DNA from: Saprospiraceae bacterium
Lineage (GTDB): Bacteria > Bacteroidota > Bacteroidia > Chitinophagales > Saprospiraceae
NCBI GenBank assembly: GCA_027030635.1
Contig: JALVES010000081.1
Coordinates: 1-40,850 of the forward strand
Reading direction: 5' to 3'
DNA: 40,850 bases
Shown here piece by piece: positions 12,677 through 40,850 of this stretch (the first letter of the stretch is position 1; each line of letters starts with the position of its first letter). The translations under genes were made by a program, and so were the position numbers. The notes below the pieces were generated by a model that was given only the letters and a program-made list of their open reading frames with translations, had not been told where the DNA came from and searched no databases.

Positions 12677-13337
12677 AGGCTTGCAATTTGATTTGCAGGC
12701 CAATTTGATCATTGATGAGCCGGTCTTTAGCCGTACCGATGATACCGGATTTGTAGGTGATGCCCCATTGCGTGCGGTCAATGGTGAATTTGGGCGTTTC
12801 GACCTCTACATAGGTTTCGGCGACCTGTACTTTGGCGGGGATGCTGATGCTTTTGGTGATGCCTTTGATGGTGAGGTTTCCGGTGATGAGGTAGTTGGCG
12901 TCTTCGCGTCCGGCTAAGGGTTTGGCATCTGTGATGACGAAGGTAGCCGTAGGGAATTGCCCGGCGTCAAAGAAATCCGAAGAGCGCAGGTGGTTTTGGA
13001 GGTCTTCTTTGTCCTGGCCTTCCTGGTCGGTGTTTTCGATGCTGTTCATATCTATGATGAACTCTCCGCCGGAGATTTTTCCGTTGGCCATTTGCAGGTG
13101 GCCTTTTTGGAGTTTGATGATGCCCGTATGGCCTCCTCCGGGTTTGGTACCCTCCCAGAAGATTCGGGCGTTATCGGCATCTACGGTCAGTTTGGCAGAG
13201 TTTTCTGCAGGGCTGTCTTGTTGCTCATTTTGTTGTGCTTCGGAGGCTTCTACCTGCTCGCCTTCGGGAGCTTGAGAGCAGGAGGCTGCAAAAAGGAGCA
13301 GGCTAAAGAGAAGGAAGAAAGTGCTAAGTCGCTGCAT
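12669..13337 (-). CDS. YceI family lipoprotein
   Basis: 222 aa. Lipobox LLLFAASC and an acidic Q/E linker. YceI-like core: ARIFWEGTKPGGGHTGIIKL...ATFVITDAKP...GNLTIKGITKSISIPAKV. Confidence 0.8.
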   Translation of the reverse strand: MQRLSTFFLLFSLLLFAASCSQAPEGEQVEASEAQQNEQQDSPAENSAKLTVDADNARIFWEGTKPGGGHTGIIKLQKGHLQMANGKISGGEFIIDMNSIENTDQEGQDKEDLQNHLRSSDFFDAGQFPTATFVITDAKPLAGREDANYLITGNLTIKGITKSISIPAKVQVAETYVEVETPKFTIDRTQWGITYKSGIIGTAKDRLINDQIGLQIKLQASL

Positions 13338-13513
13338 GGATGAAATGGTTTAAGTGATTTTGGTGATTTGTCGTGCTTTGTACTAATACATTCTTGCCCA
13401 TTAAAAGGTTTTGCGTAATTTTAGGCAAAATTAGAAAAGGCGGTGTCTTTCGCCTTTTACGGTGGCAGTTTGTATGGCAAGCTGTTTTAATTCTGGAAAA
13501 CAAAAAAGAAACT

Positions 13514-16500
13514 ATGAAGTCTGTTTACTCTTTGCGCTTGTTTAAACGCGTGCCCGCATACCTTTGGGCTTTTTTGCTATTGCCTTTTTCGGCTTTGGCT
13601 CAGGTAACACCTGAGGCGGGTACTGTGGAGTGTTTCCTGGTGGGCTCCGGAGGTCTGTTTGTGGATCAGGGAGGTCAGGGTGGCAGCAGCGATTCGCAGG
13701 GCGCACCCGGCAATTACGACAATTGCGATTGCGTAACTACGACGACTCTTTGCCCCGTAGATGGCTCGGCCTTGACTGTGGATTTTACGGCTTTTGGAGT
13801 AGGCGCTGCCTTTGACTGGCTGGTGATTCTGGATGGCGACAATCCCGATGGAGAGACTTATCCGTATTCTATTTTGGCTGACCCCGGTAATGCCGCTTTG
13901 CAGTTGTTCAACAACTCCAATGGCAGCTCTGCTTATGGCGGAGCCGACAACTATGGTGCAGGCTTACAGCAGGGCGTGGGGAACTTATTGCAAATGGACG
14001 TTACGAGCTATACGGCGAGCAATGCCACGGGCTGCCTGACCTTTGTATTCAGAGCTTCCGGCACTTTGGATAACCTGGGCTGGGAAGCCGCGCTTTCCAC
14101 TGCAGACGGAGCCGGTCATCCGGGCGATGACATAAGCTGTGATGTAAACATTTCCTGCTTTCCGGTGGGCAATCCTTATGTTTTCAACATTACGCCTGGC
14201 GGTGCTGAAGTGAGTTGGAATGAGGTTGCAGGGGCAGAGGCCTACATCGTGGAGTACGGCCCTGCAGGTTTCATTCCCGGCAATGGCATTTTTGTCTCCA
14301 CTACAGAGACCGGTTTTACCCTGGAAAATCTCGAAGAATATACCGCCTATGACGTTTACATTTATACAGACTGCGGCAACGGCGAGCTGAGCCTTCCGGC
14401 AGGCCCGCTCAACTTCCAAACGCCCTGGCTGAACCCGCCGACGACTTGTACTTATTCTTTGGACTTGTTTGACTCCTTCGGCAATGGCTGGAATGGAGCG
14501 CAACTGGAAGTCAATATAGACGGAGATATTCAAATATTTACTCTTTTCAATGGCAGCAGTGCTACTTATACCTTTGACGTATTGGATGGAGTGCCGGTCA
14601 TCCTGACCTACTCTCCGGGTTCTTTTGAAAATGAGGTCTCTTATGTGATGTACGATTCAGACGGCAATCCGGTCTTTTCAGACGGGCCTTTTCCGGCTAC
14701 GGGAGAAGTTTACAACAGCCCGGCTTTTTGCCCGGCCTGCCCGGGAATTTCTCCTACGGGGGTAACGGTTTCTAATATAACGGAGAGCACGGCAGACATC
14801 TCCTGGACGGACAACGGCGCCGCTCAACAATACGTGGTGGAATACGGCCCTGCGGGTTTTCCCCAGGGTATTGGTCTGACGATGACTACGACTTCTCCTT
14901 CGGTTACGCTGACGGGCTTAAACTCGTTTCTGAATTATGAATTTTACATCTATGCCGATTGCGGCGCCGATGGTACGAGCAGCGTGGCAGGGCCTTTCTC
15001 CTTCCAGACGATGAGTAGTGGAGGCGGTGGTGCCACTTGTACTTACACCCTGCAACTGCACGATTCCTTTGGCGATGGTTGGAATGGCGCATTCTTAACC
15101 GTTGAGCAAAACGGCGTTGCTACGGATTACACCATTGACTTTAGCGGCAATGGCTCCGATGAGACCTATATGGTGGATTTGATCAGCAATTTGCCGGTTA
15201 CGATTTCCTATTCACCGGGCTTCTTTGAGAGCGAGGTTACTTTTGAGATCCTGGACCCCGACGGAAACATCATCTATGAAGACGGGCCTTTCCCTCAGAC
15301 GGGCGTCATTTTGGAATTTCTGGCCTGCCCCTCTTGTGCCGGCCCAACCAATTTCCATGTAGAGGATGTGAATGCTGACAATGCCACCTTTGCCTGGGAT
15401 GTTGCACAGGATGCAGGGGAGTACGTTTTGGAATATGGCACTTTCGGCTTTACGCTCGGCACAGGAACGGCCATGACTTTGACGGATGCGACTTCTGCCA
15501 CCATCACAGGTTTAGAGGAGAATACGTACTATGACGTTTACCTGAGCTACACCTGTGATGACGGCGAACAGGGCGCACGCCTCGGCCCCATACTCATCCA
15601 TACGCGTTGGTTTAACGATGTGGGTATTTCCGGCATCTTTTCCCCCACAGAGGCCGATTGCAACCTCAGCGCTGCCGAGCAGGTGGTCGTGGGCATTCAC
15701 AACTACGGGCAAAATCCACAATCGCTGATTGACTTTTTCTATGCTGTAAACGGCCAAAAGGCTCCCATTCCCTATCCTACAGATGGCTTTTTTACGGGAG
15801 TCGTGAGCAATGACAGCACGGAAGTCGTGCCCTTTGAAACGCTATATGACCTTTCTGAACCCGGCTATTACCTCATTGAGGCCTGGACAGCATTGGAGAC
15901 GGACAGCAACCTGTCTAACGACACTTTCCGCTTAGAAGTGGTAACGGCAGCGCCTTTGCCCCTGGTGGAAGATTTTGAAAGCGGAGCTTTGGATGCAGAT
16001 TGGTCAACCAGCGCTTTCAATCCGATTTATGCGCCGAACAGCCACAACAACCCCACTTGGGTCTGTGGCGTGAATCTGTATTCTTTCAACAACACCTTTT
16101 TCCTGCAGACCAATCGCGTGGGCTCTTTGGGACCGAGTGAAGAACTCAGCTTCGAGTATCGCTATGTGGATTGGTTCGCCGGCACAAACGCCACTATTTT
16201 GGGGCCTGATGACAAATTAGAGGTGCAAATCTCCACCGATTGCGAGGCGAGCTGGACGACCGTTTATACCATAGATGCGTCCAATCACACGCCTACAGCC
16301 GATTTTACGGAAGTGAGCATAGACCTGTCTCCCTTCGCAGGGCAGGCCATTACAGTGCGCTTCCAGGCCACCTGGGGCTCAGGGGATTACTGGCTGGATT
16401 TGGACAACATCAATGTTACCGGCTGCCCTTCCAGTTTTATCCTTTCGGCAAATGTACAGGACGAGAGCAGCGCCGGCGCTGCAGACGGAAGCATCTCTGT

Positions 16501-16930
16501 GAGCCCGACCATTGGCACGGCTCCTTTCACCTATGTGTGGTCAAATAATGCCATAGGTCCGCTGAACGACAATCTTTCGGCAGGCACTTATTCGGTAACG
16601 GTTACGGATGCCAACGGCTGCCAGGAGGTAGCTGCTTATGAAGTAGGTGTAGGTACGGCTGTACAAACACCCGACTTCATCCAACGCCTGTTGGTAGCTC
16701 CGAATCCTACGGCAGGACGGGCCGTTGTGGAGTTAAGCCTGTACGAGCCGGCTTCTGTGGAATTGGACGTCTTTACGGCTTTAGCCCAGCCCATAGCGCA
16801 TTACGAGCCCGGGCAGGGCAAGCAGTTCAGGCAGGAGTTAGACCTCTCCGAGCAGCCTCCGGGCATGTATTATCTGCGAATACGGGCCGGAGAGCAGGTT
16901 TACATGGCTAAACTTTTGCTCGCTAAGTAA
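13514..16930 (+). CDS. Very large multidomain T9SS-secreted surface protein. Domain order: CUB-like, 3 x FN3, 2 x DSFG(D/N)GWNG modules, choice-of-anchor-J/MAM-like, SprB-like repeat, CTD
   Basis: Signal peptide MKSVYSLRLFKRVPAYLWAFLLLPFSALAQ (ORF open from 13373). FN3 modules contain Y(I/V)(V/L)EYG(P/T)(A/F)GF. Duplicated Cys-bracketed modules are CTYSLDLFDSFGNGWNGAQLEV... and CTYTLQLHDSFGDGWNGAFLTV... The VEDFESGALDADWS...WLDLDNINVTGC region follows. SprB-like repeat GSISVSPTIGTAPFTYVWSNN...GTYSVTVTDANGC. CTD reads LLVAPNPTAGRAVVELSL...GMYYLRI. Confidence 0.85.
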   Translation: MKSVYSLRLFKRVPAYLWAFLLLPFSALAQVTPEAGTVECFLVGSGGLFVDQGGQGGSSDSQGAPGNYDNCDCVTTTTLCPVDGSALTVDFTAFGVGAAFDWLVILDGDNPDGETYPYSILADPGNAALQLFNNSNGSSAYGGADNYGAGLQQGVGNLLQMDVTSYTASNATGCLTFVFRASGTLDNLGWEAALSTADGAGHPGDDISCDVNISCFPVGNPYVFNITPGGAEVSWNEVAGAEAYIVEYGPAGFIPGNGIFVSTTETGFTLENLEEYTAYDVYIYTDCGNGELSLPAGPLNFQTPWLNPPTTCTYSLDLFDSFGNGWNGAQLEVNIDGDIQIFTLFNGSSATYTFDVLDGVPVILTYSPGSFENEVSYVMYDSDGNPVFSDGPFPATGEVYNSPAFCPACPGISPTGVTVSNITESTADISWTDNGAAQQYVVEYGPAGFPQGIGLTMTTTSPSVTLTGLNSFLNYEFYIYADCGADGTSSVAGPFSFQTMSSGGGGATCTYTLQLHDSFGDGWNGAFLTVEQNGVATDYTIDFSGNGSDETYMVDLISNLPVTISYSPGFFESEVTFEILDPDGNIIYEDGPFPQTGVILEFLACPSCAGPTNFHVEDVNADNATFAWDVAQDAGEYVLEYGTFGFTLGTGTAMTLTDATSATITGLEENTYYDVYLSYTCDDGEQGARLGPILIHTRWFNDVGISGIFSPTEADCNLSAAEQVVVGIHNYGQNPQSLIDFFYAVNGQKAPIPYPTDGFFTGVVSNDSTEVVPFETLYDLSEPGYYLIEAWTALETDSNLSNDTFRLEVVTAAPLPLVEDFESGALDADWSTSAFNPIYAPNSHNNPTWVCGVNLYSFNNTFFLQTNRVGSLGPSEELSFEYRYVDWFAGTNATILGPDDKLEVQISTDCEASWTTVYTIDASNHTPTADFTEVSIDLSPFAGQAITVRFQATWGSGDYWLDLDNINVTGCPSSFILSANVQDESSAGAADGSISVSPTIGTAPFTYVWSNNAIGPLNDNLSAGTYSVTVTDANGCQEVAAYEVGVGTAVQTPDFIQRLLVAPNPTAGRAVVELSLYEPASVELDVFTALAQPIAHYEPGQGKQFRQELDLSEQPPGMYYLRIRAGEQVYMAKLLLAK

Positions 16931-25744: not shown

Positions 25745-26347
25745 TTGATACCGAAAATTCCGACCAAATTGGAGTACGTAGAAGACCACGGCGTTTCAGT
25801 TGATGAGCAGATATTGTACCTCTTGCAGGTCAAAGGCGATTTTGACAAGGGTTTTAAACTGCTGATGGAACAGTATGAAGAGCGCCTCTACTGGCACATC
25901 CGTGGTATGGTGAACACCCATGAAAATGCCAACGACGTAGTCCAAAACACCCTGGTAAAAGTGTTCCGAAACATTGCCAAATTCAAAGGGCAGTCAAAGC
26001 TCTACACCTGGCTGTATCGCATAGCCACCAACGAAGCGCTGACTTTCCTCAAGAAGGAACAAAGGCGGCATTCCGAAGACCTCGATGGCGAAGAGAAAAA
26101 CCATCTGAATACGCTACCGGCCAGCAGCTCTGTAGATGGCGAGCAAGCCTGGGAAGCACTGCAAAAGGCCATTGAACAATTGCCTGACAAGCAAAAAACG
26201 GTCTTCGTTTTGCGCTATTTCGACGAAATGAGCTATCGCGATATGTCGGAAACGCTGAAAACCTCGGAAGGAGCCCTCAAAGCCTCTTTTCACCACGCTC
26301 TCAAAAAGGTTGAAAAATACCTGCGGGAAACAGAACTGTACTGTTAA
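25745..26347 (+). CDS. ECF-type RNA polymerase sigma-70 family factor
   Basis: 200 aa. Region 2 ANDVVQNTLVKVFRNIAKFKGQSKLYTWLYRIATNEALTFLKK. Region 4 VFVLRYFDEMSYRDMSETLKTSEGALKASFHHALKKVEKYL. There is no in-frame ATG before region 2, so a TTG start is assumed. Confidence 0.85.
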   Translation: MIPKIPTKLEYVEDHGVSVDEQILYLLQVKGDFDKGFKLLMEQYEERLYWHIRGMVNTHENANDVVQNTLVKVFRNIAKFKGQSKLYTWLYRIATNEALTFLKKEQRRHSEDLDGEEKNHLNTLPASSSVDGEQAWEALQKAIEQLPDKQKTVFVLRYFDEMSYRDMSETLKTSEGALKASFHHALKKVEKYLRETELYC

Positions 26348-30161: not shown

Positions 30162-31589
30162 CTATCCGGGCGTAGCTTTGGAGCGTTTTTTGCTGAGGGG
30201 GTAGCCAAACAGTCCTTTCTCTTTGATGGCTTTGACGACTTCGGGAGGCACGGATTCTTCCCAGCCCGATTCGCCGGCCTGCAATTGAGCAAGCACCTGG
30301 TCGGTGGGGATTTTGAGCGCTTTGGGGTTGAAGTAGCGCACATCTGTGATTTGGCCGCTTTCCTGCAGGTGTTTGTAGATGTACTTCATGCCTTCGGGAA
30401 TGGGCAGGTTTTGGGAGTCCATGCGATGGCGGTCGTCGGCTTCGATGTTGGGATAGACGTACATGGTTACGTTGCGGGTAAAGATTTCGCCGAAGGAGAC
30501 GAGCAGGCGGCCGTCTTTGTTGCGCTCGTATTTTTCCCGGATGATGTCGAGCAGGTGATAGGCGCCGATGACGAGACCTATCTTCTGGATGCGGAAATCG
30601 GCGAGATATTCGATGAGTTCGTTGTAGTGTTCGTACTTGGAGAGCAGCACCATTTTGTCCATGGCTGCGAGGGCGTCGGCGCGGTCGAGGAAGTCGGCTT
30701 CGCGTTCTTCGCCTTCGCCATGCAGGTCTTCGAGTCGCAATTCGGCCAGCACTTCGGAGCGGGCGGCCTCTTCGTCGCCGAGGTCTTCCTGGAATTGGCG
30801 ATAGGCATTGGTGAAGGTATCGGCGTGCAGCAGCGTAGGCGGGCGGAAGTTGCCGCGCGAGATCATGACGTTTTGCTTGTACAGCAAGTCGGAGCCGTGT
30901 ATGGAGCCGTTGGCATCGAAGAGCGTGAGCTTGGTCAGGCCGTAGTGTACCAGCCAATAGCTGAGCAGGCGCTTGTCTAAATCTTCAAAGTCGGGGCCCG
31001 TCAGGCGCAGCATGTCTATGGATACGCGTCCCTGCAGGCGATCCATGAGGGAGCGTATCAGTTTGCGGGGGTCTTTAGCGTGACGAAAGCAGGCGTAGAT
31101 GAGGTTGACACCGAGGATGCCGATGGCTTCCTGCTGTTGTTTTTTGTTATAGTCTTCGAGATTGACATGCAGCACGATGTCGTTGGGCGGACTTTCCGGT
31201 TCGAGCTGAAAGCGCAAGCCGACCCAGCCATGCCCCCTCACCGTGCGCTGGTAATTGACCGTCGCCACGGTATTGGCAAAGGCAAAAAAGAGAGTGTCGG
31301 GACGGCAGTTGCCGAGGCGTTCGTCCACCAGGCCGTATTCGTGCTCCAGCATTTTGTAAATGCGAGACTCACAGACGTAACGGCCCTTTTTCTCCGGCCC
31401 GTAGATCACATCCGAAAAGATCTTGTCGTAGGCCGACATGGTCTTGGCAATGGTGCCGGCTGCTGCGCCGGCCTGAAAGAAATAGCGGGCGACTTCCTGC
31501 CCGGCGCCAATTTCGGCAAAGGTGCCGTAAATCGCAGGGTCGAGATTGATTTCTAAGGCTTTTTGCTCGGTCTCTAATACTTGTTGCAT
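30162..31589 (-). CDS. Conserved protein of unknown function
   Basis: ORF open to 31613. Probable start is MQQVLETEQ at 31589. Strongly conserved-looking N-terminus INLDPAIYGTFAEIGAGQEVARYFFQAGAAAGTIAKTMSAYD. From memory, homologues are inconsistently annotated, for example as NaMN adenylyltransferase-like because of the C-terminal IPTDQVLAQLQAGESGWEESVPPEVVKAIKEKGLFGY segment. No confident family assignment. Confidence 0.75.
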   Translation of the reverse strand: MQQVLETEQKALEINLDPAIYGTFAEIGAGQEVARYFFQAGAAAGTIAKTMSAYDKIFSDVIYGPEKKGRYVCESRIYKMLEHEYGLVDERLGNCRPDTLFFAFANTVATVNYQRTVRGHGWVGLRFQLEPESPPNDIVLHVNLEDYNKKQQQEAIGILGVNLIYACFRHAKDPRKLIRSLMDRLQGRVSIDMLRLTGPDFEDLDKRLLSYWLVHYGLTKLTLFDANGSIHGSDLLYKQNVMISRGNFRPPTLLHADTFTNAYRQFQEDLGDEEAARSEVLAELRLEDLHGEGEEREADFLDRADALAAMDKMVLLSKYEHYNELIEYLADFRIQKIGLVIGAYHLLDIIREKYERNKDGRLLVSFGEIFTRNVTMYVYPNIEADDRHRMDSQNLPIPEGMKYIYKHLQESGQITDVRYFNPKALKIPTDQVLAQLQAGESGWEESVPPEVVKAIKEKGLFGYPLSKKRSKATPG

Positions 31590-31727
31590 GTAAGGCTTTT
31601 TAAGACAGGACAAAGGTAGGGCTTTTTCTTCGGCCCTGCTTTTTTGTGAATTTTCTTTGAGTAGAGGTTCATTAAGTTTTGGGCACCTGTTTCCTTTGGA
31701 AAACAGATTGTCAAGTTGAACTGGCTT

Positions 31728-31905: not shown

Positions 31906-32109
31906 CGGGGATCGGAGATGGGCTCTTACAAAGGTTCAATTGCCAGATGGTGTTATTTATTTTATGCCACTTTGCAACCAAGCCTAAGTGGATAAAAAAT
32001 AAAAGGAGTATTGGATATGCGCTGAATTTCGGGCATATTGCCATCTCAAAACTTAATTAACTATTGTTTGAATAAAGGCAACCTTTTGAAGTTCATGCTC
32101 GTAAAAGGA

Positions 32110-32131
32110 TATGTTTGCTTGTTGCAAACAT
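32110..32131 (+). promoter_or_regulatory. -7 promoter box TATGTTTG overlapping an 8-bp-stem hairpin upstream of the cytochrome operon
   Basis: TAnnTTTG at 32110-32117. The hairpin atgtttgc ttgtt gcaaacat spans 32111-32131. The ATG at 32158 follows. Confidence 0.45.
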
Positions 32132-32157
32132 CTTTTTCAAACAGATGCCCGGGGAAA

Positions 32158-33261
32158 ATGAACAAACCTGAGAAGCAAAGACATGATAAATATATCCCTC
32201 CTGAGGGGAAGTTACCCAAAGCGATATCTGTTGTGAAACACCTTTTGTCATTCCGTTATAGCCTGTTTTTGATGCTTCTCGCAGCGGGCTTGTGGACAGC
32301 CACTGCCCTGCCCGACAAGCCGCAGTGGGATGCCGATACACCTCTGTATCAGGTGCTTCGCTATCTCGGAGAGAAGCAGGCCGAACACGAATTGCCGCTG
32401 CGCCCTGCATGGGTACAGAAGGGATACGAAATCGTCCACTTCGGGCGCACCACCGATTTTGAGGGGCATCGCACTTCCTACGTCAGCAAGTACTATGTCT
32501 GTACCACTTGCCACAATGTGGAGCGGGAAGATCCCGATTTGCGAGTTAGCGATCCGGAGGCCCGCTTGTCCTATGTGAAGGAAAAGGGCATCCCCTTTTT
32601 ACAGGGAACGACTTTCCGGGGCATCGTCAATCGCGAAAGTTGGTACAACGACGACTACATCAAAAAATACGGGCCGGAGATTATCGGCAACGCTCAGCAC
32701 AGCCTGCGTTCGGCCATACAGTTGTGTGCCGTGCAATGCTCCCAGGGACGCCCGATGAAACGCTGGGAAGTGAATGCGGTGCTTTCTTATTTTTGGTCGT
32801 TGCAGTGGAAACTGGGGGATTTAGGCCTTTCGGCAAATGATTACAAAAAGCTGAATGCAGCGGGAGAGGATGAAGCAGAAAGGGCATCTCTGCGTGCCTG
32901 GCTGAAAACTTTTTACCTGCAAAAATCGCCCGCTCATTTTTTCGACGCTCCGGCCGACAAGAGAAAGGGCTATCCCGGACTGAAGGGGCGCGCCTCTGTG
33001 GGCAAAGACCTCTATGAGTTGAGCTGCCTGCATTGCCACAAGCCCGGAGGCGTCTCGCATTACATCCTCGACCACTCGAAGCTGAGCCTGAGGCACCTGA
33101 AACAGAAAATTACCAAAGACTCTCACATGTCGCTTTACCAAATCATCCCTTACGGCACTTATGCCATCCCCGGGCACCGGCCCTACATGCCGCACTACCC
33201 TTTGGAGCGCATGAGCAAGCAACAGGTGGAAGATTTGAGAGCCTATGTGGAGTCTTTTTGA
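32158..33261 (+). CDS. Membrane-anchored di-haem c-type cytochrome
   Basis: ORF open from 32038. The Met at 32158 (MNKPEKQRHDK) lies downstream of the promoter box. N-terminal TM helix YSLFLMLLAAGLWTATAL. Two CXXCH motifs: YVCTTCHNVE and LSCLHCHKPG. Confidence 0.75.
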   Translation: MNKPEKQRHDKYIPPEGKLPKAISVVKHLLSFRYSLFLMLLAAGLWTATALPDKPQWDADTPLYQVLRYLGEKQAEHELPLRPAWVQKGYEIVHFGRTTDFEGHRTSYVSKYYVCTTCHNVEREDPDLRVSDPEARLSYVKEKGIPFLQGTTFRGIVNRESWYNDDYIKKYGPEIIGNAQHSLRSAIQLCAVQCSQGRPMKRWEVNAVLSYFWSLQWKLGDLGLSANDYKKLNAAGEDEAERASLRAWLKTFYLQKSPAHFFDAPADKRKGYPGLKGRASVGKDLYELSCLHCHKPGGVSHYILDHSKLSLRHLKQKITKDSHMSLYQIIPYGTYAIPGHRPYMPHYPLERMSKQQVEDLRAYVESF

Positions 33262-33336
33262 ACTGATGACATCAAGCCCGGCGCTGTATAGCGTTTGACT
33301 TCATCATCCATACGCATTTGACAAAAACAACAGGAC

Positions 33337-34089
33337 ATGAAACAAAATGCTTTTTTCCTTTTCGCCCTCTGGGTAAGTGCCTTTCTCGGGCTGACACTTT
33401 TTTCGGCCTGCCATTCCGAGCCCATTATCGTTCAATTGCCGGATGACGGCAACAACGGCGGGAACAATGGCGGCAATAACAACGGCGGAAACAACGGCGG
33501 CAGCAATGCCAACGAGTGTCCCGAGGGTACGATTTCCTTTCAATACGAGGTGCTACCCTTATTGGTCTCTTCCTGTGCCACCAGTGGCTGCCACGATGCT
33601 GCCAGCCACAAGGAAGGTGTCATTATGGATTCCTATGATAACATCATGGAAGAAGTGAAGCCCAACAAGCCGCCGAGCAAGAGCAAGCTCTATCAGGTGC
33701 TGGTGCGCTCGGGCAGAGAGCGCATGCCGCCGCCGCCCAATCCGGCATTTACCCAGGAGCAGATTGACCTGATTGCCAACTGGATTGATCAGGGGGCGCC
33801 CAACACCGATTGCCTCCCGGCCTGTGATCCTTACAACTATACGTTCAATGCGGTGATTTATCCCACCATTCTGCAATCCTGCACGGGCTGCCACAGCGGT
33901 TCGCAGGCTTCCGGCTCGGTTTGGCTGGAGACTTATGATGACATCTACCTCTATGCCGTCAACGGGAAACTACTCGGCAGCATCAAGCACGAAGCGGGCT
34001 ACAGCGCCATGCCTCCGGGCCTGCAGTTAGACGACTGCCGCATCACGCAAATTGAAAACTGGATCAACAATGGAGCGCCCAATGATTAA
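33337..34089 (+). CDS. Lipoprotein with two PSCyt1-like (Planctomycete cytochrome c-type) modules
   Basis: Lipobox LTLFSAC and a GNNGG low-complexity linker. Module 1: VLPLLVSSCATSGCHD...ERMPPPP...IANWIDQGAP (CX4CH). Module 2: IYPTILQSCTGCHSG...GYSAMPPG...IENWINNGAP (CXXCH). Confidence 0.75.
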   Translation: MKQNAFFLFALWVSAFLGLTLFSACHSEPIIVQLPDDGNNGGNNGGNNNGGNNGGSNANECPEGTISFQYEVLPLLVSSCATSGCHDAASHKEGVIMDSYDNIMEEVKPNKPPSKSKLYQVLVRSGRERMPPPPNPAFTQEQIDLIANWIDQGAPNTDCLPACDPYNYTFNAVIYPTILQSCTGCHSGSQASGSVWLETYDDIYLYAVNGKLLGSIKHEAGYSAMPPGLQLDDCRITQIENWINNGAPND

Positions 34090-34450
34090 ACGACTCATCC
34101 CAGGTCTGTTTTTAGCAGGCTTGCTGTTCTTCAGCGCTTGCTATTACGACAACAAGGAAGACCTCTACATCGTAGAGGGCAATTGCAACACTACGGATGT
34201 AACCTTCAGTCAGACCATCCAGCCGCTGATCAACGACCAATGCGTTTCCTGCCACAAGGCGGGAAACGCCAATGGGAATGTGTTGCTGGATTCTTACACC
34301 ACCATCAAAGAGCAGGCCGACAACGGCAGATTGCTCGGTTCCGTGCATCACGAAGGCGGCTATTCGGCCATGCCTCCCGGAAGTACCTTGTCGAATTGCA
34401 GCCTCGCGCAATTGGATATCTGGGTGCAAAGCGGAGCCCCTGAAAATTGA
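34082..34450 (+). CDS. Lipoprotein with one PSCyt1-like CXXCH module
   Basis: The Met at 34082 (MIKRLIPGLFLAGLLFFSAC, with lipobox) overlaps the previous stop in the sequence ATGATTAA. Module: IQPLINDQCVSCHKAG...GYSAMPPG...LDIWVQSGAP. Confidence 0.75.
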   Translation: MIKRLIPGLFLAGLLFFSACYYDNKEDLYIVEGNCNTTDVTFSQTIQPLINDQCVSCHKAGNANGNVLLDSYTTIKEQADNGRLLGSVHHEGGYSAMPPGSTLSNCSLAQLDIWVQSGAPEN

Positions 34451-34455
34451 GTGCC

Positions 34456-35328
34456 ATGAAGAAGAATATTTTAAGGCCTGCCACCTGGCCGCTGTTTCTT
34501 TTCAGCCTCTTGTTGCCTCTTATCTTTGGCGCCCATGTCCTTTCGGCTCAGGATTATGTGTCTCGCACTTTCAGAGGCACCCGCGTCATCAACGGGCATT
34601 CTCTGGAGACCGTGCATACGGGGGAGTTGGAGTTTCTCATCTCGCACCGCTTTGGTTACATCAACAGAGGGGCTTATGAGTTTTTTGGACTCGACCAGGC
34701 AAGCATGAGGCTGGGTTTTGAGTATGGTGTGAACGATCGCCTCATGCTGGGCGTGGGGCGCAGCACCTATGGCAAACATTACGATGCTTTCGCCAAATTT
34801 CGACTCTTGCGACAGCGCACGGATGGCAAAATCCCCCTGTCCATAACCCTCTTCACTTCTGCTGCCATCAACACCCTCAAACCCACGGACCCCAACTTTC
34901 CCATTTATCTGCAATCCCGCCTCGCCTATACCTGGCAACTGCTCATAGGGGGAAAGGTCAACGATCGCCTCAGCCTGCAGCTCATGCCCACCATCGTACA
35001 CTACAACCTGGTCGAAACCGCTGAAGACCACAACGACCTCTTGAGTGCAGGCGCCGCCATCCGCTTCCGCTTCACCAAAAACGTGGCCATCCTTGCCGAA
35101 TACTACTACGTACTCCCGGGCCAGCGAACGCAGGAACTACACGATGCCTTTGCCATAGGCTTCGACATCAATACCGGCAGCCACGTCTTCCAGCTTCAAA
35201 TCACCAATGCCACCGGCATGATCGAAAAAGCCTTCATAGGCGAAACCACCGGAGATTGGGCCAAGGGCGACATCCGCCTGGGCTTTAATATCGCACGAAC
35301 CTTTAAGCTGAAGGGTAGGCGGTATTGA
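34456..35328 (+). CDS. Predicted outer-membrane beta-barrel protein (DUF5777-like)
   Basis: Signal peptide MKKNILRPATWPLFLFSLLLPLIFGAHVLSAQ. TFRGTRVINGHSLETVHTGELEFLISHRFG matches my memory of the DUF5777 N-terminal signature. Alternating hydrophobic strands run throughout, and the protein ends in ...GFNIARTFKLKGRRY. It starts 5 nt after the previous stop. Confidence 0.7.
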   Translation: MKKNILRPATWPLFLFSLLLPLIFGAHVLSAQDYVSRTFRGTRVINGHSLETVHTGELEFLISHRFGYINRGAYEFFGLDQASMRLGFEYGVNDRLMLGVGRSTYGKHYDAFAKFRLLRQRTDGKIPLSITLFTSAAINTLKPTDPNFPIYLQSRLAYTWQLLIGGKVNDRLSLQLMPTIVHYNLVETAEDHNDLLSAGAAIRFRFTKNVAILAEYYYVLPGQRTQELHDAFAIGFDINTGSHVFQLQITNATGMIEKAFIGETTGDWAKGDIRLGFNIARTFKLKGRRY

Positions 35329-35454: not shown

Positions 35455-36489
35455 ATGAAGATAGAAAACTTAATATTAGAGTTCTTAAAACAAAATCCGG
35501 AAAGCTCTTCCGGAGACATCCAGCGAGGAATATCGGAGAGGAAAAGTATTGCCACAATAAAAAGGAGTTTAGCAAAACTTGTGGCACAGAAATTAGTATC
35601 ACCAATAGGAAAAGGAAAAGCGACAAGATATAAGTTGTCAGCATATTACAACCTGTTTCGAGAAGTTGACATTCAAGGCTATTATGAGAAAGAAATAGAT
35701 GAAAGAAAAATAATTGAGAATTTTAACTTTTCGTTACTGAGGGAAATTTTGCCTAAGGCAAAATTGTTTACAGAAAATGAATTAAATCACTTAACTGCTT
35801 TGCAAAAAGAGTTTGAGAAAAACATGTCTGAGTTAAGTGAATTTGAAGTGAGGAGGGAATTTGAACGACTTGCTATTGATTTGAGCTGGAAATCTTCACA
35901 GATAGAAGGGAATACCTATTCTTTGCTGGAAACAGAGCGGCTTTTAAAAGAAAAAGAAACTGCGGCGGGAAAATCAAAGGATGAAGCAGTAATGTTACTT
36001 AACCATAAGGAAGCCATTGATTTTGTGATTGAAAATCCGGATTATTTGTTTCCCTTATCCGTACCCAAAATTGAAGACATCCATAGTATCTTAACCAAGG
36101 ACCTTGTCGTTGACAGAAATATACGAAAGAGAAGAATTGGCATTTCAGGAACCAACTATCGTCCTATAGATAATGAATTTCAAATTAAAGAAGCTTTATC
36201 ATTGGCTTGTGATTTGATAAATAAAAAAGAAAGTGCTTTTGAGCAAGCTCTTCTTGCGCTTGTTCTAATCTCATACATTCAGCCATTTGTCGATGGAAAT
36301 AAAAGAACGGCAAGAATTGTAAGTAATGCAATATTGATAAATCACAAATACTGCCCTATCTCATTTAGAACGGTTGATAGTGTTGATTACAAGAAAGCCA
36401 TGTTGCTGTTCTATGAGCAAAATAATATCACCACTTTCAAGAGAATATTTATTGATCAATATGAATTTGCAGTGAAAACATATTTTTAG
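35455..36489 (+). CDS. wHTH-Fic/Doc family protein with a degenerate active-site motif (Gln in place of the catalytic His)
   Basis: 344 aa in a visibly AT-rich gene. N-terminal wHTH-like segment ILEFLKQNPESSSGDIQRGISERKSIATIKRSLAKLVAQKLV. SxxxEG inhibitory-helix motif SSQIEG. Fic core QPFVDGNKRTAR, where the canonical motif is HxFx(D/E)GNGRxxR. Confidence 0.8.
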   Translation: MKIENLILEFLKQNPESSSGDIQRGISERKSIATIKRSLAKLVAQKLVSPIGKGKATRYKLSAYYNLFREVDIQGYYEKEIDERKIIENFNFSLLREILPKAKLFTENELNHLTALQKEFEKNMSELSEFEVRREFERLAIDLSWKSSQIEGNTYSLLETERLLKEKETAAGKSKDEAVMLLNHKEAIDFVIENPDYLFPLSVPKIEDIHSILTKDLVVDRNIRKRRIGISGTNYRPIDNEFQIKEALSLACDLINKKESAFEQALLALVLISYIQPFVDGNKRTARIVSNAILINHKYCPISFRTVDSVDYKKAMLLFYEQNNITTFKRIFIDQYEFAVKTYF

Positions 36490-36505
36490 GGGGGATGCCC
36501 CCCCC
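36489..36505. terminator. G6/C8 hairpin between convergent genes
   Basis: gggggg atg cccccccc immediately after the Fic stop codon. Confidence 0.45.
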
Positions 36506-36567
36506 TTAGAAAGTTGGACAGAGATTACAAGTACATGTATCTCTTGGACTTGTTGCCAGCTGAATTT

Positions 36568-37827
36568 TCAGAGACCGATTGTCGAATCCAAGCTCCTATA
36601 TGGAATAATATGTACCTCTGCCTCTTGGTAGTTTACCACAAAATCGCCGCTTTTGCTAACCACAAAGGCCCGTTTGGGATGATAGCTTCGTATGAAGTTT
36701 TTGAGTGAAGCGGGAATCTGCGGCTTGTTGTAATCTGCAAACTTCACTTCTATGGGTATGGGCAAGCTCCCGGTGTCTATGATAAAGTCCACTTCTGCCC
36801 GCGATTTAGTCCTCCAGGTTTTGAGCTCAAAAAAGGTGTCTGACAGCAGATCCTGCAGCAGCAGGAAAACAAAATTTTGGAACACCATGCCGGCATTGGC
36901 TTCTGAAGAAAAGAGCTGAAAATTCCGTCGGCTCAAATTGGCTATGCCGAGGTCTGTAAAATAGCAGGCCGGAGACTTTACAATCTCTTTCTCCGGATTG
37001 GTGAAAAAAGGCGGTATGCATTTTGTCATAAAAGTCTTTTCCAGATACCACAAATATTTTTTCACCGTAGGCGAGCTCAGCCTGCTCAAGACGGCCAGGC
37101 CCGAGTAGTTGACAAACTGCCCTATTCGCTGTGCCATCAGGCGCATGAGGCGCTGATAGGCATCGGGCCGGTCAACGCCTATGATGGCAGCTACATCTCT
37201 GTCCAAATAACTCAGCAAAATTTCCTGCAATTCGGCCCTTTTTTCCCCTTCGTTTTCTGCCAGCACCACTTTCGGGTACCCACCAAAGGTCATGTACTCC
37301 TTCAAAAGGCCGTCCATCAAGTCCGGATGAATCGCAGCTGCCTGCTGCCGGTTGTCTTTGTATTTGTATGCCGTTTTAAAGTCGAAAAACTCCCTGTAGC
37401 TCAGGGGCATCAGATGAAACACCCGTTTTCGTCCGGCAAGCGATTCGATCACTTTCTCTTTCAGTTCCAGGCTGCCCGAGCCGCTTACCACAAATTTGTA
37501 CGGCAGTTCCCTGTCATAAATTCCTTTGAGAAAAAGCCCTGCATCCTGCTTGCGCTGAATCTCATCTATAAAGACCACTGCCGGCCTTTCGGCAAATGTT
37601 AAGCGCAGGGCATCCACGAAGCGCTGCTGAGAAGCAAACAAGCCGGAATCTGTATCTATGTCCAGGCTGTAAAACCCCACAGGCCTGCCGGCCTGCCGGA
37701 TTTCAGCCATTAGTTTTTTCATCAGGGTCGTCTTCCCAACTTGCCGGGGCCCCAAAATGACGGTAATCTCCGGCTTGGAAAGATGAGCCCGAATGGCCGC
37801 TTCTCCGGTTCTGACGATGTACTCCAT
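36568..37827 (-). CDS. AAA+ ATPase (COG1373-like, AAA_14 + DUF4143 architecture) with C-terminal PD-(D/E)xK-like nuclease motif; second paralogue in the window
   Basis: Walker A ILGPRQVGKTTL and Walker B VVFIDEIQ. C-terminal motif SRAEVDFIIDTGSLPIPIEVKFAD. The ORF is open to a GTG at 37842, but those five codons contain the -7 box, so the ATG at 37827 (MEYIVRTGE) is preferred. Confidence 0.8.
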   Translation of the reverse strand: MEYIVRTGEAAIRAHLSKPEITVILGPRQVGKTTLMKKLMAEIRQAGRPVGFYSLDIDTDSGLFASQQRFVDALRLTFAERPAVVFIDEIQRKQDAGLFLKGIYDRELPYKFVVSGSGSLELKEKVIESLAGRKRVFHLMPLSYREFFDFKTAYKYKDNRQQAAAIHPDLMDGLLKEYMTFGGYPKVVLAENEGEKRAELQEILLSYLDRDVAAIIGVDRPDAYQRLMRLMAQRIGQFVNYSGLAVLSRLSSPTVKKYLWYLEKTFMTKCIPPFFTNPEKEIVKSPACYFTDLGIANLSRRNFQLFSSEANAGMVFQNFVFLLLQDLLSDTFFELKTWRTKSRAEVDFIIDTGSLPIPIEVKFADYNKPQIPASLKNFIRSYHPKRAFVVSKSGDFVVNYQEAEVHIIPYRSLDSTIGL

Positions 37828-37831
37828 ATTG

Positions 37832-37839
37832 CAAATATA
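37832..37839 (-). promoter_or_regulatory. -7 promoter box TATATTTG only 4 nt from the ATG, implying a near-leaderless mRNA
   Basis: The minus strand reads gtgTATATTTGcaatATGgag. Confidence 0.4.
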
Positions 37840-37856
37840 CACTTTTTTAAAAAGCG

Positions 37857-37887
37857 ACTTTCAAAAAAGTTAAACTTTTTTGAAAGT
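37857..37887. promoter_or_regulatory. Perfect 31-nt palindrome (15-bp arms) in the ATPase promoter region
   Basis: actttcaaaaaagtt a aacttttttgaaagt. It is centred about 45 nt upstream of the ATG at 37827. Confidence 0.6.
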
Positions 37888-38405
37888 TGAAATCCAGAAT
37901 AGTTGATTTTTGCGCTGTTGCGCTCCAATTTATACGCATCATTGGGCTTTAAAGGGGCTTTTGCTCTCAAAGGGAAGAGGTTGGAGGGTGTGAGCTACCC
38001 CAGCTGCTGAATGAGAAAGCCCTACTTTCCCAAGTTGTTCCAGCCTGGCATATCCTCCTGTGGAGAAAATCGGAAAAGTTGCAAAACTCAAATAGATGTT
38101 GTATATTTGCCCCTGACAGCAATGTCATCGCCCATTACGTTCTTTGCTTTTGCGCGCAGCGGCCATGCCAGGGATGCTCTACCCGAAAAGCACCAATCCG
38201 CCAATGGGAACAGGCGTTCCCGACCCTCTGATTCTGTGGGGCATAGAGCACTGAAACCCACCTCAGACATATTTCCGCCCGAAGTTCGGGCGGGAAGACT
38301 ATGCGTGCATAAGCAAGATTTGAGCGTAGATGCTACAAAAGCGAACTTTTGGTGTAGAAAAGGTTCGTTTATACGGTAGTTGGCAGAAATCAAAAAAGGA
38401 TAATT

Positions 38406-39320
38406 ATGGAAGCATTAAAAAGATACATTGAAACAAGAGAGCTACTTTTTAAACAAGCAGATATTGCTCCAAAATCAAATTTTGTAAATATAAACACCGA
38501 GAGAGTAAAAAGAGTTCATTATCTTGAACTGGGAAGCGGAACACCGTTAGTTTTAATTCATGGAGGTCTTGGGCATTCTTCTGATTGGTTTCCGATTTTA
38601 AAACAACTTTCAGAACATTTCCATTTGTATATAGTAGATCGACCTGGGCATGGTTTAACAGATCCAATTGATTATTCAAATGTTAATTTTCAACAAGCTG
38701 CAGTAGATTTTGTTTCCGCTTTTATGGATAGTGTCGGTTTAAAAAAGGCTTCTCTGTTAGGCAATTCCATGGGTGGTTTTTTTTCTATTTGTTTTGGACT
38801 ATCGTATCCGGAAAGGGTGGATAAATTAATTTTAATTGGAGCACCGGCTGGACTAAACCGGTGGATCCCCCCCATGCTTAGATTAATGGGTGTTAGGCCA
38901 ATCAATAAGCTACTTGCTAAGACTATTGCGAAGCCGAGTGTTATGGGAACAAAAAAAATCTACGAACAAGTATTAGTAGCAAATGTTGATAACTTGCCTC
39001 AAGTTTATTTTGAGCATGGTTTTTATCACATGTTACTCCCTAACATAGCAATAAGCCAAAGAACTATGTTAGAAAATGTTCTGAATATTAGAGGGTGGAA
39101 AGAAGAATATTATCTAACTGATAAATTAGATCAACTAACCCCCCCTGTTCACTTTATATGGGGGAGCCAGGATGCCTTTGAAAAGCCTGATGCTGGAATT
39201 GTAAAAGCATCTAAAATAAACAATTACACTTTTGAGATAGTAGAAAACGCCGGTCATTGCCCATGGCTTGATGAACCAAATAAATGTTCATCTCTTATAA
39301 TCGAAAAGATAGAAAAATAG
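38406..39320 (+). CDS. Alpha/beta-fold hydrolase
   Basis: 304 aa in an AT-rich gene. Oxyanion region PLVLIHGGLGHSSDW, nucleophile elbow LLGNSMGG and C-terminal catalytic His ENAGHCPWLDEP. Confidence 0.85.
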   Translation: MEALKRYIETRELLFKQADIAPKSNFVNINTERVKRVHYLELGSGTPLVLIHGGLGHSSDWFPILKQLSEHFHLYIVDRPGHGLTDPIDYSNVNFQQAAVDFVSAFMDSVGLKKASLLGNSMGGFFSICFGLSYPERVDKLILIGAPAGLNRWIPPMLRLMGVRPINKLLAKTIAKPSVMGTKKIYEQVLVANVDNLPQVYFEHGFYHMLLPNIAISQRTMLENVLNIRGWKEEYYLTDKLDQLTPPVHFIWGSQDAFEKPDAGIVKASKINNYTFEIVENAGHCPWLDEPNKCSSLIIEKIEK

Positions 39321-39598
39321 ACTTCTGCCAACAAAAAATATAGTGCATTTGGCAGACAGTGCTAAACCAAAAGATGAGAGCAATAAACAAACATAATACA
39401 AACCCGAAAATATGGGGCTTTGAGATGCCAAACGCACCATATTTAAACCGCTGGCCAAAATGTAAAAGACTTACAAAAAGCTTTGACTCACCTAAACACC
39501 ATATCGAAATAGAACATAACCTGCCTCAAGGAGCATAACTTCTTGACAATACAGTTCAAAGACGGTTTTTCTTTAACAAAAAAAATAATCGTAGCAAA

Positions 39599-39790
39599 AT
39601 GAAATGGTTAGGCTTAATCGTCGTAATAGTCTTTAGCTGCGGCCGGGGATTAAATAATCTGACTGAACCCTCAAATTGCAAGGAATTGGCCCAAATTGTT
39701 AATGCAGGTTGGAAAAGGCTGAAGATAAAAACACTAAACTTCATTATTCCTGTGGAAAAGGGTTCGCAAGAAAATTTAGCCATGCAATAA
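39599..39790 (+). CDS. Small hypothetical lipoprotein, possibly disrupted
   Basis: 63 aa. MKWLGLIVVIVFSCG has a lipobox. An adjacent frame continues with ...KKDELIKLLGKPDEIIDRAMDYFRL to 39887, which suggests a frameshifted remnant. Weak support. Confidence 0.3.
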   Translation: MKWLGLIVVIVFSCGRGLNNLTEPSNCKELAQIVNAGWKRLKIKTLNFIIPVEKGSQENLAMQ

Positions 39791-39922
39791 ATTCTGATTC
39801 CTGTACTTTAAAGAAAGACGAATTGATAAAGTTATTGGGCAAGCCCGATGAAATTATTGACAGGGCAATGGATTATTTCAGACTATAGCCCCGGCGGATG
39901 ATTCCAAATAAAAAAACATTGG

Positions 39923-39930
39923 TATCTTTG
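39923..39930 (+). promoter_or_regulatory. -7 promoter box TATCTTTG for the transposase
   Basis: Exact TAnnTTTG 5 nt upstream of the ATG at 39935. Confidence 0.4.
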
Positions 39931-39934
39931 CACC

Positions 39935-40850
39935 ATGCATAAAGGAGCTAAGTTAGACGACTACATGGTCTTCAGGCGTCGTGCCATCGAACTTTACCAG
40001 CAAGGCGAGAAACAAAAATTCATTGTCAAAGCTTTAGGGGTTAGTCAACCTACAGTTAGCCGTTGGATATCGGAGTTCAAAACCAAAGGAGAAGCTTTCT
40101 TGGAACGTCCAAAGATTGGCGGTTCTAAACGGAAGCTAACGCCTGACCAACTCGAAGAATTGACCAACATGCTGGACGAAGGAGCAGAGCACCATGGATT
40201 TGAAGGCAATCTGTGGACCCGTGCCCGAGTCAAAAAACTTATTGAGCGGTGTTTTGGAGTAGTATATGCGGAGCGCTCTATAAGCGATTTGCTCCGTGAC
40301 TTGGGATATACACTCCAGAAACCAGATCGGCGAAGTTATGCTCAGGCTCCGGAGAGGGTGCGACAATGGCGCGAAGAGACACTACCTGCATTGAAAAAAA
40401 AGCCCAAGATGAGGGGTATTCGATCGCATATGCAGATGAAGCTGCTTTCAGCTATTTCCCTTATGTGCAAAGAACTTATCACCGCAAGGGGAAGCGCTGC
40501 ATCGTTAAACACGGGCCGTTACGTGGAGGTGTGCAATCGCTCAGTATGGTGATTCCCGGCGGCAAACTGTACTTCGAGCTCAAACGAGGTAGTTTCAAAG
40601 GTGTAGATGTGGCAAATTTTTTAAAGAAGGTATTAAAGCGGTTTAGGAGGAAAAAGCTAATCATTATTTGGGATGGAGCGACTATCCATTGGAGTAAAGA
40701 AGTCAAAGAGTTTCTTCGCACAGAAGCCAAGGGAAGAATTCTTTGGGTACAATTGCCTTCACATTCTCCACAATTGAATGCCGATGAACAAGCACACAGC
40801 CTGATAAAAACGCATGATTTTAAAAACCGTCTCTTTACTTCGATAAAAGA
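39935..40850 (+). CDS. IS630-family transposase, two frames joined by a -1 frameshift, with its 3' end beyond the window
   Basis: Frame 0 (39935-40401) encodes the HTH/wHTH part: FIVKALGVSQPTVSRWISEFKTKGEAFLERPKIGGSKRKLTPDQ...LWTRARVKKLIERCFGVVYAERSISDLLRDLGYTLQKP. Frame -1 from 40402 (not in the ORF track) encodes the DDE part: AQDEGYSIAYADEAAFSYFPYVQRTYHRKGKR...KLIIIWDGATIHWSKEVKEFL...LPSHSPQLNADEQ. Without the frameshift, frame 0 stops at 40552. Confidence 0.85.
40394..40401 (+). other. A8 slippery run, the candidate programmed -1 ribosomal frameshift site
   Basis: ttg aaa aaa aag in frame 0. The DDE-domain frame begins directly after it. Confidence 0.6.

Follow-up and report, generated by a model that had tools for sequence, protein, structure and literature searches.

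A DUF5777 β-barrel encoded with three proteins bearing c-type haem motifs in a Saprospiraceae bacterium: one variant of a widespread barrel–cytochrome gene unit

What is a small outer-membrane β-barrel doing at the end of an operon whose three other genes all encode proteins with c-type haem motifs? The question is raised by a locus of a Saprospiraceae bacterium (Bacteroidota) found at positions 32,110–35,328 of contig JALVES010000081.1 (NCBI GenBank assembly GCA_027030635.1), the first 40,850 nucleotides (nt) of which, read on the forward strand, constitute the stretch of DNA analysed here and referred to as the window. An earlier reading of the letters alone (the original prediction) had described the locus as a four-gene operon encoding an anchored di-haem cytochrome c, two haem lipoproteins and a barrel resembling the DUF5777 family, and had seen in it a candidate compact analogue of the MtrCAB, PioAB and Pcc electron conduits. 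The analysis presented here indicates that the barrel–cytochrome unit is real, widespread and undescribed, that the four-gene form is one variant of it and that the four genes very probably make up some sort of envelope redox unit; as to what the barrel does within this unit, several explanations of unequal probability are weighed below as the evidence bearing on each of them is given.

The four open reading frames (ORFs) lie on the + strand and follow one another head to tail: gene 1 (32158–33261) encodes a di-haem c-type cytochrome, gene 2 (33337–34089) a lipoprotein consisting of an Asn/Gly-rich linker of ~35 amino acids and two PSCyt1-type haem modules, gene 3 (34082–34450) a small lipoprotein with a single PSCyt1-type module and gene 4 (34456–35328) the DUF5777 outer-membrane barrel. 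Genes 1 and 2 are separated by 75 nt, genes 2 and 3 overlap by 8 nt (ATGATTAA, 34082–34089) and genes 3 and 4 are 5 nt apart, so that the co-directionality and the spacings originally described are all borne out. In total, five c-type haem motifs are distributed over three proteins (two, two and one in genes 1, 2 and 3, respectively); the operon thus consists of a barrel and three proteins with c-type haem motifs, placed behind a promoter of the extracytoplasmic function (ECF) sigma type.

That barrel and cytochromes belong together is indicated by two scans, the first of which took the barrel as its starting point and covered, by pattern scanning, one genome per species; relatives were confirmed at no fewer than 589 places (that is, at least 589) and 80 loci were kept, all of them labelled Bacteroidota with the exception of one metagenome-assembled genome labelled Methylophilus, which is taken as a binning or labelling error. 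A HMMER scan of 1.84 billion representative proteins yielded 2,428 DUF5777 clusters (50% identity), and the family appears to be confined to Bacteroidota. Haem lipoproteins of the PSCyt type are encoded upstream of the barrel, on the same strand, in 67–68 of the 80 loci; a YceI-like gene (PF04264) immediately adjoins the barrel in 64 and a gene for a membrane-anchored protein with an oligonucleotide/oligosaccharide-binding (OB) fold (PF12869, tRNA_anti-like) is present in 53, the pair formed by these two genes being located, in most loci with upstream lipoproteins, between gene 3 and the barrel. The commonest cassette consists accordingly of haem lipoproteins, membrane-anchored OB-fold protein, YceI and DUF5777, is often under the control of an ECF sigma factor or of a LytTR two-component system and frequently contains a second YceI gene that precedes the linked sensor kinase. 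A homologue of gene 1 was found in just one of the 80 loci (L001), in a sample that returned few close relatives of the window.

The second scan, carried out on metagenome contigs, started from gene 1 and comprised 38 loci flanked by 3 kb or more on either side. DUF5777 is encoded within 3 kb and on the same strand in 34 of these loci, a PSCyt lipoprotein in 30, and the genes (abbreviated g1 to g4) occur in at least five orders, including g1-g2-g3-g4, g3-g4-g1, g2-g4-g1, g3-g1-g4 and g1-g4. Neither the YceI nor the OB-fold gene was found in any gene 1 locus on the contigs scanned, the converse holding only roughly. Among annotated contigs, the exact four-gene order recurs in Neolewinella lacunae and in the closest relatives of the window, which also possess the upstream VanY gene and a gene encoding a protein of 474–483 amino acids. 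A linkage that outlives so much rearrangement is strong evidence for shared function. The synteny that the original prediction had expected in relatives is therefore found for barrel and cytochromes, which, judging from the gene content of these loci, represent the recurring core of the cassette, whereas the exact composition of the four-gene module is not general; compared with the commonest cassette, with which it has in common the family of the barrel and both types of haem lipoprotein, the operon of the window is devoid of genes for YceI and the OB-fold protein and contains instead the di-haem gene 1, and its form can be regarded as a variant of one lineage (Saprospiraceae and Lewinellaceae relatives) in which gene 1 takes the place of the pair.

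Within the window, YceI and OB-fold genes are found neither between nor beside genes 1–4, and the only YceI-like gene (12669–13337, − strand; PF04264, E = 2e-28) is 19 kb away from the operon, belongs to a different subgroup and is divergent from the gene (13373–16930) of a 1185-aa type-IX-secreted protein of the fn3/SprB kind. Its product shares about 29–30% identity, over 70–96 residues, with the cassette-linked YceI proteins and, at this low level of identity, is probably not the missing partner. As to the OB-fold membrane protein of the other cassettes, the idea that it might be a haem chaperone similar to CcmE was rejected, its only conserved residues of this type being three Cys, with no conserved His or HxxxY.

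In the literature searched, no paper was found to mention DUF5777; that on PSCyt1 amounts to genome surveys, and nothing relevant was found on the combination of YceI, cytochrome c, barrel and ECF factor, in agreement with the original prediction, which knew of no characterised system with such a composition.

The remaining partners of the barrel vary from locus to locus. Seven loci, belonging to both cassette types (L034, L050, L072, L092, L093, L098 and L133), encode small Rieske [2Fe-2S] proteins, placed beside the barrel, beside gene 1 or as the first gene of the operon, and in some of these loci the PSCyt cytochromes are replaced; the representative that was scanned (L072) has a signal of the twin-arginine translocation (Tat) type. 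Proteins with a Reeler domain and a CXXCH motif are encoded in the cassette region of L070, L073 and L080, the gene being inside the operon in L070, whose product (the one scanned) carries a weak type-IX-secretion sorting domain, and one locus (L020) has a gene for a di-haem cytochrome c peroxidase (CCP) shortly upstream of the barrel. Finally, among the top 150 of the 2,428 DUF5777 clusters, there is a natural fusion (P0267) in which a signal peptide is followed by a Reeler domain bearing the haem motif CTECH and then by a DUF5777 barrel; it is encoded on two independent contigs (L165, 959–2329, and L166, 540–1910), each time 3′ of a gene for a cytochrome of 126 amino acids resembling gene 3. 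Judged by their domains, all the variable partners would be envelope redox proteins, one haem domain being physically joined to the barrel.

What kind of barrel is this? Gene 4 encodes 290 residues beginning with a signal peptide that ends LSAQ/D, and its resemblance to DUF5777, noticed in the original prediction, is in fact a full-length match to the Pfam family (PF19089; E = 1.4e-92, 309.9 bits against a cut-off of 23.1, model positions 1–247 of 247). The AlphaFold2 model obtained from an alignment of 28 sequences (mean predicted local distance difference test, pLDDT, 84.7; predicted template-modelling score, pTM, 0.78) shows 12 strands, preceded by the signal peptide and by an N-terminal segment that is extended and conserved, in keeping with the signal peptide and barrel that had been proposed. 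When the model was submitted to Foldseek, the matches listed were all outer-membrane barrels or proteins with barrel domains (OmpG, NanC, FapF, autotransporter barrels, LpxR, the COG4313 channel and TodX), with TM-scores on the query below 0.5; these are generic barrels and the structure search was discarded as a source of functional leads. No relative of gene 4 was found in the PDB by either single-sequence or profile search, and the PDB and structure searches gave no similarity to a known redox enzyme or metal site.

The conservation of the barrel is, for a porin, unusually high, as far as can be gathered from the alignment: 40 positions are at least 97% conserved over 200 sequences, including H64, H182, H243, D80, D110, D237 and E215, and much of the loops L1 and L6 is conserved too. 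A hairpin turn, DxxTGxHVFQ, is invariant and would face the periplasm if the barrel has the standard topology. The residues predicted to face the lumen, as assigned by a crude hydrophobicity alternation on one sequence and not by the coordinates of the model, are R65, R85, D110, K114, R116, R155, Q161, K167, Q175, E215, D237, R274, K284 and several Gly; D110, K114, Q161, Q175, E215 and D237 are also among the positions conserved at 97% or more. This suggests that the barrel may have a polar interior or else a lumen that the loops and the conserved N-terminal segment fill up. Departures from the single barrel exist in the family: P0245 (615 amino acids) contains two tandem DUF5777 barrels in one polypeptide, and P0260, P0271, P0272 and P0280 have a long low-complexity extension, rich in Lys, Ala and Glu, at one end.

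The enzyme-like pattern of conservation, with its three His, its several Asp and Glu and the conserved loops, is one of the grounds for imagining that DUF5777 might be an outer-membrane enzyme or handler of a lipophilic molecule, such as a quinone, a carotenoid or an oxidised lipid, brought to it by YceI, with cytochromes or Rieske proteins supplying or removing the electrons needed for its modification or repair and with gene 1 standing in for YceI in the window. The tight adjacency of YceI and barrel, the second YceI often found before the sensor kinase and the presence, among the structural matches, of 12-strand enzymes and channels for hydrophobic substrates (LpxR, the COG4313 channel and TodX) speak for this possibility; the predicted lumen, on the contrary, is rich in charges and not hydrophobic, the window and the 38 other gene 1 loci, where YceI and OB-fold genes are missing from the cassette, indicate that the pair can work without YceI, and the lack of similarity to known redox enzymes or metal sites tells in the same direction. 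We consider this explanation unlikely.

The size of the barrel is also what separates the operon from the electron conduits to which it had been likened. MtrCAB, PioAB and Pcc have barrels of ~26 strands that sheath a deca-haem protein and haem chains spanning 100–185 Å (PMC8406198). The operon resembles these systems, as well as MtoAB, in the adjacency of genes for a barrel, a lipoprotein cytochrome and a periplasmic cytochrome, and also in that one of its lipoproteins may be at the surface; it differs from them in having 12 strands in a protein of 290 residues, no more than two haem motifs per protein and domains of the class-I type. Moreover, genes 1–4 gave no Pfam match to MtrB_PioB, the family whose barrels, of about 20–26 strands, are wide enough to sheath a cytochrome, and their scores with the OmcA/MtrC models are far below the cut-offs. 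Being based on too small a barrel and lacking both a multi-haem protein and a relative of MtrB_PioB, the proposed analogy with MtrCAB, PioAB and Pcc does not hold.

The two lipoproteins are made up of a lipobox, a linker and haem modules, with no other Pfam family. The lipoboxes LFSAC (gene 2) and FFSAC (gene 3) are present as had been claimed; the claim of three copies of a haem module is right for the two proteins taken together, two being in gene 2 (CATSGCH, i.e., CX4CH, followed by CTGCH, i.e., CXXCH) and one in gene 3 (CVSCH), and wrong if intended for each of them. The three modules are 27–31% identical and have in common the C..CH motif, MPP and W...GAP; the conserved MPP lies ~45 residues after the haem motif and its Met is likely the distal haem ligand. 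The resemblance to PSCyt1 (PF07635) is above the Pfam cut-off of 22 bits in gene 2 (36.3 bits, in two stretches) and marginally so in gene 3 (22.9 bits), while NCBIfam offers a partial match of both proteins to the small LIC11213 lipoprotein family and nothing further. The domain family is the same that occurs in the planctomycete PSCyt1-PSCyt2-PSD1 proteins; here, unlike there, the domain is found alone, single or in tandem and lipid-anchored, with neither PSCyt2 (DUF1549) nor PSD1 (DUF1553), and the first module of gene 2 has CX4CH instead of CXXCH. The succession of CX4CH and CXXCH is retained in 49 of 58 homologues of gene 2.

The linker of gene 2 (DDGNNGGNNGGNNNGGNNGGSNAN, 33436–33510, about residues 34–58) is placed between the lipid anchor and the first module; its Asn/Gly-rich composition produced spurious matches in the PDB search of this protein, which returned low-complexity noise only. 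In the homologues there is space for linkers of different lengths, at times Pro-rich. The di-haem lipoproteins of the loci of the L series often have a mature N-terminus of the form C-x-H-(E/D)-P, with a His two residues after the lipidated Cys, and this conserved His could serve as a ligand of a metal or of haem.

The mature N-terminus of gene 3 is CYYDNKEDLY, and its homologues, which were drawn from the fetched loci (the word-index search gave 4 proteins), strongly conserve C-Y-Y-D-x-E-E-x-L-Y-P, with CYYD(K/N)EE at the beginning. In Bacteroidota, K-(D/E)2 or Q-A-(D/E)2 located just after the lipidated Cys constitutes a lipoprotein export signal (PMC5080379); gene 3 has a K-E-D of this type at positions +5 to +7, a predicted motif, and gene 2 (CHSEP...) has none.

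It is at this point that the possibility of a true trans-outer-membrane electron conduit has to be considered, in which gene 3 would be flipped to the surface, genes 2 and 1 would be periplasmic and the barrel would bridge the two sides, either because the N-terminal tether of gene 3 is threaded through the lumen or because a cofactor is held in the barrel, the electrons being exchanged with extracellular acceptors or donors. Besides the K-(D/E)2 element of gene 3 and the strong conservation in which it is embedded (PMC5080379), this possibility is favored by the cassettes encoding a Reeler-haem protein with a type-IX sorting domain, a protein that would be at the surface, by the conserved Gly at lumen-facing strand positions, which would leave room for a threaded segment, and by the order of P0267, where a passenger precedes a 12-strand barrel as in autotransporters, the barrels of which figure among the Foldseek matches. 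However, a folded cytochrome cannot fit inside 12 strands, and a multi-haem chain is missing; MtrCAB employs 26 strands and 20 haems (PMC8406198). As each side would have one haem at most, electrons would have to tunnel across a long gap unless the barrel contained a cofactor, and nothing indicates one; neither Pfam nor NCBIfam gave a match to MtrB_PioB or to a multi-haem family. Furthermore, the gene 3 motif is further from the Cys than the tested motifs are, and its conservation could equally well be structural. All considered, a conduit of this kind is improbable, and the same low probability is assigned to its generalisation, i.e., a minimal electron device spread throughout the phylum and switched by ECF factors, with a 12-strand barrel, a mono-haem lipoprotein at the surface and di-haem carriers in the periplasm.

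A further explanation is suggested by the kind of cytochrome encoded by genes 2 and 3, which are small proteins of the class-I type, similar to those serving oxidases; weak matches were obtained to cytochrome c6, to subunit III of the cbb3 oxidase and to the ActE subunit of alternative complex III. The function could then be ordinary periplasmic electron transfer, for instance along an alternative path, via cytochrome c, that ends at a terminal oxidase or a peroxidase, with the barrel as a scaffold or assembly factor, namely a Slam-like translocator or an anchoring platform. The Neisseria Slam system, in which dedicated barrels adjoin their lipoprotein clients, provides a precedent, and the di-haem peroxidase encoded in a few cassettes fits this picture. 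Yet the barrel is also accompanied by proteins that are not lipoproteins (the Tat-exported Rieske, the soluble YceI and, in the g1-g4 loci, gene 1 alone), in P0267 the haem domain is fused directly to the barrel, and the very high conservation of polar lumen and loop residues would not be expected of a passive scaffold. This explanation appears to us the least probable of those considered, indeed very unlikely.

The position of gene 1 in the envelope probably differs from what had been proposed. The long ORF starts with the ATG at 32158 and encodes 367 amino acids, but the 976 homologues that were found align from V26 of this ORF, which corresponds to a GTG at 32233 and to a protein of 342 amino acids. 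From this GTG the N-terminus reads MKHLLSFRYSLFLMLLAAGLWTATA/LPD, i.e., a Sec-type signal peptide with an A-x-A cleavage site, and the homologues have N-termini of the same look. Both the GTG start and the signal peptide make the transmembrane anchor of the original prediction doubtful and a soluble periplasmic protein likelier; a start at 32233 and a cleavable signal peptide, rather than a membrane anchor, are accordingly the more likely choice, judging from the alignment. The two CXXCH motifs, CTTCH and CLHCH, were confirmed.

The C-terminal domain of gene 1 matches Cytochrom_C and Cytochrome_CBB3 of Pfam (E about 1e-7) and would be, by this token, an ordinary class-I cytochrome c. The N-terminal haem domain has no family match in Pfam and is approximately twice the size of a class-I domain; in the alignment of the homologues C190 and C194 (C-x3-C) are invariant and the nearby M200 is not. 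Searches of the PDB by sequence and profile gave weak matches to class-I cytochromes only, and the search with the AlphaFold2 model (pLDDT 76) gave weak matches as well, namely TsdA, the CCP/MacA/MauG peroxidases and SoxAX, the best of which (TsdA) has E = 0.017 and a TM-score of 0.27–0.40. Gene 1 shares with TsdA, CCP, MauG and MacA, its only structural neighbours, an architecture of two domains and two haems, and the presence of the di-haem gene 2 at its side is reminiscent of TsdB, which is encoded beside TsdA; the differences are the weakness of the matches, the absence of sequence similarity in the profile search and the size of the N-terminal domain. The match to TsdA is too weak for a function to be derived from it, and a catalytic role of gene 1, hinted at by the model, is a lead and not a result.

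How is the operon switched on? At 32078–32103, on the + strand, there is a sequence of the ECF-sigma type, GCAACC (−35), N16, CGTA (−10), which emerged as a conserved motif from the comparison of the loci and is the single match to GCAAC-N16-19-CGTA in the whole window. GCAACC-N16/17-CGTA is also present in eight further loci (L082, L081, L001, L085, L088, L086, L089 and L058), 20–130 nt 5′ of the gene with which the operon starts, and is thus found in nine loci in all, against a chance expectation of 0.004 per 300 nt. The hallmark of promoters recognised by ECF sigma factors is a −35 element with AAC and a −10 element with CGT, 16–17 nt apart. Genes for an ECF sigma factor and an anti-sigma factor adjoin the operon in L001 and L081, and do so in 14 of the 80 genome loci. 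In terms of its promoter motif the operon qualifies as a member of an ECF regulon, and its control appears to be of the stress type; such control would suggest a response to envelope damage and, as such, would suit a barrel that handles lipophilic molecules. Two ECF sigma genes of the window, at 733–1284 (− strand) and 25745–26347 (+ strand), are candidates for the cognate factor; the product of the first is 31–39% identical to the sigma factors adjoining DUF5777 cassettes elsewhere, and the second gene is followed by a 172-aa ORF and by the gene of a 154-aa Metal_resist (LTXXQ)-like protein. The motif GCAACC-N16-CGTA was not found 5′ of either of them. The protein encoded after the cassette-linked ECF sigma gene (L018, 3689–5143; the same cluster occurs in 12 other loci) is presumably the anti-sigma factor, and its C-terminal region weakly resembles OMP_b-brl_2 (24.1 bits, below the cut-off of 27), which would be an unusual architecture for such a factor.

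The promoter proposed at first had been a different one, namely the TAnnTTTG box TATGTTTG at 32110–32117 (+ strand). The box is present; its role as operon promoter was rejected, since it is no commoner in the window than expected by chance (30 found, 24.3 ± 4.7 expected) and the 10 related loci that were examined do not have it 5′ of their operons. A second, housekeeping promoter at this site is possible, if unsupported. The box overlaps a perfect 8-bp inverted repeat, ATGTTTGC-ttgtt-GCAAACAT (32111–32131, + strand), which is followed by CTTTTTC and lies just 3′ of the ECF −10 element; the relatives examined do not share the repeat, which could serve as an operator or, once transcribed, as a 5′-terminal hairpin.

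If neither a haem-filled conduit nor a scaffold is the likeliest answer, what could the barrel and the cytochromes be doing together? The system that comes closest in logic is Cyc2, a small 16-strand barrel similar to OprO/OprP with a single c-type haem at its N-terminal, periplasmic end, whose substrate enters the pore (PMC8406198). P0267 has the same order of a fused haem domain followed by the barrel. On the other hand, DUF5777 has 12 strands instead of 16 and no specific structural match, OprO and OprP being absent from the top 50 structural matches of gene 4; the haem proteins of the window are separate lipoproteins with no fusion; and the haem domain of P0267 is of the Reeler type and not a cytochrome of the Cyc2 type. 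Judging from the strand count and the separate genes, the operon would be no homologue of Cyc2, and no sequence relationship to it was seen, although no comparison aimed at one was made; the likeness is one of logic.

The explanation that we favor, while holding it tentatively and at somewhat less than an even chance, is therefore that the operon encodes a split Cyc2-like module, dependent on an ECF factor, in which cytochromes sit at the mouth of a small channel, rather than a module of the MtrCAB type. Evidence for it is provided by the linkage that withstands rearrangement, the redox nature of the partners, the P0267 fusion, the 12-strand barrel with its predicted polar lumen and its invariant turn, the ECF promoter with the sigma and anti-sigma genes adjoining many loci, and the MPP motif; where each protein is located, in which direction the electrons flow, whether the barrel conducts a solute and which solute this is are points that we infer. 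In such a module, the DUF5777 barrel would offer a small redox-active solute a narrow, polar-lined channel or a place to bind in the outer membrane. This solute might be a metal ion, an oxyanion of sulfur or a small oxidant, and c cytochromes of the class-I type at the barrel would exchange electrons with it. The mono-haem lipoprotein of gene 3 would be the partner proximal to the barrel, docking on it, and the di-haem lipoprotein of gene 2, on its flexible tether of ~35 residues, would relay the electrons across the periplasm; gene 1, soluble or weakly anchored, would act as the catalytic partner or as the link to the respiratory chain, in a position that in most other Bacteroidota would be held by YceI and the OB-fold membrane protein.

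Several observations weigh against a split Cyc2-like module. The known ligands of YceI proteins are polyisoprenoids and lipids, and the presence of YceI in the commonest cassette points to a lipophilic substrate and not to an ionic one. Cyc2 is the iron oxidase of neutrophilic and acidophilic iron oxidisers, whereas the hosts of DUF5777 are mostly heterotrophs living aerobically, and such organisms would not be expected to have a Cyc2-like Fe(II) oxidase. The polar lining is read from the crude lumen assignment mentioned above, and the conserved N-terminal segment (residues 33–56), together with L1 and L6, may plug the barrel wholly. Lastly, the neighbouring genes point to no substrate, the flanks consisting of housekeeping genes.

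As to the surroundings of the operon, a gene divergent from it (30162–31613, − strand) encodes a protein of 483 amino acids with no Pfam match, and a 474-aa gene, also without a Pfam match, is in the same place in the relatives closest to the window (L082 and L083) and not in L081 and L001. Downstream (35455–40552) there are genes for a Fic protein, an AAA_14/DUF4143 ATPase, an α/β hydrolase and a transposase-like helix-turn-helix protein, and the stretch may be variable or mobile; a second AAA_14/DUF4143 ATPase gene is at 11157–12515, and a Fic gene is also near the operon in Neolewinella lacunae (L081).

The tie with small envelope redox proteins turns the anonymous membrane barrel DUF5777 into part of a testable redox module. 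If it is true that a solute or electrons cross the outer membrane by this route, aerobic Bacteroidota abundant in soil, activated sludge and sea water would couple their respiration to the chemistry outside the cell, a connection of the respiratory chain with extracellular chemistry that would have gone unrecognised, and the orphan PSCyt1 domain would acquire its first functional context. Should a conduit be involved, trans-outer-membrane electron transfer would have a third structural solution, in addition to those of the Mtr and Cyc2 types; should the function be instead the modification or repair of lipids, the unit would be the first known redox enzyme system built on an outer-membrane barrel.

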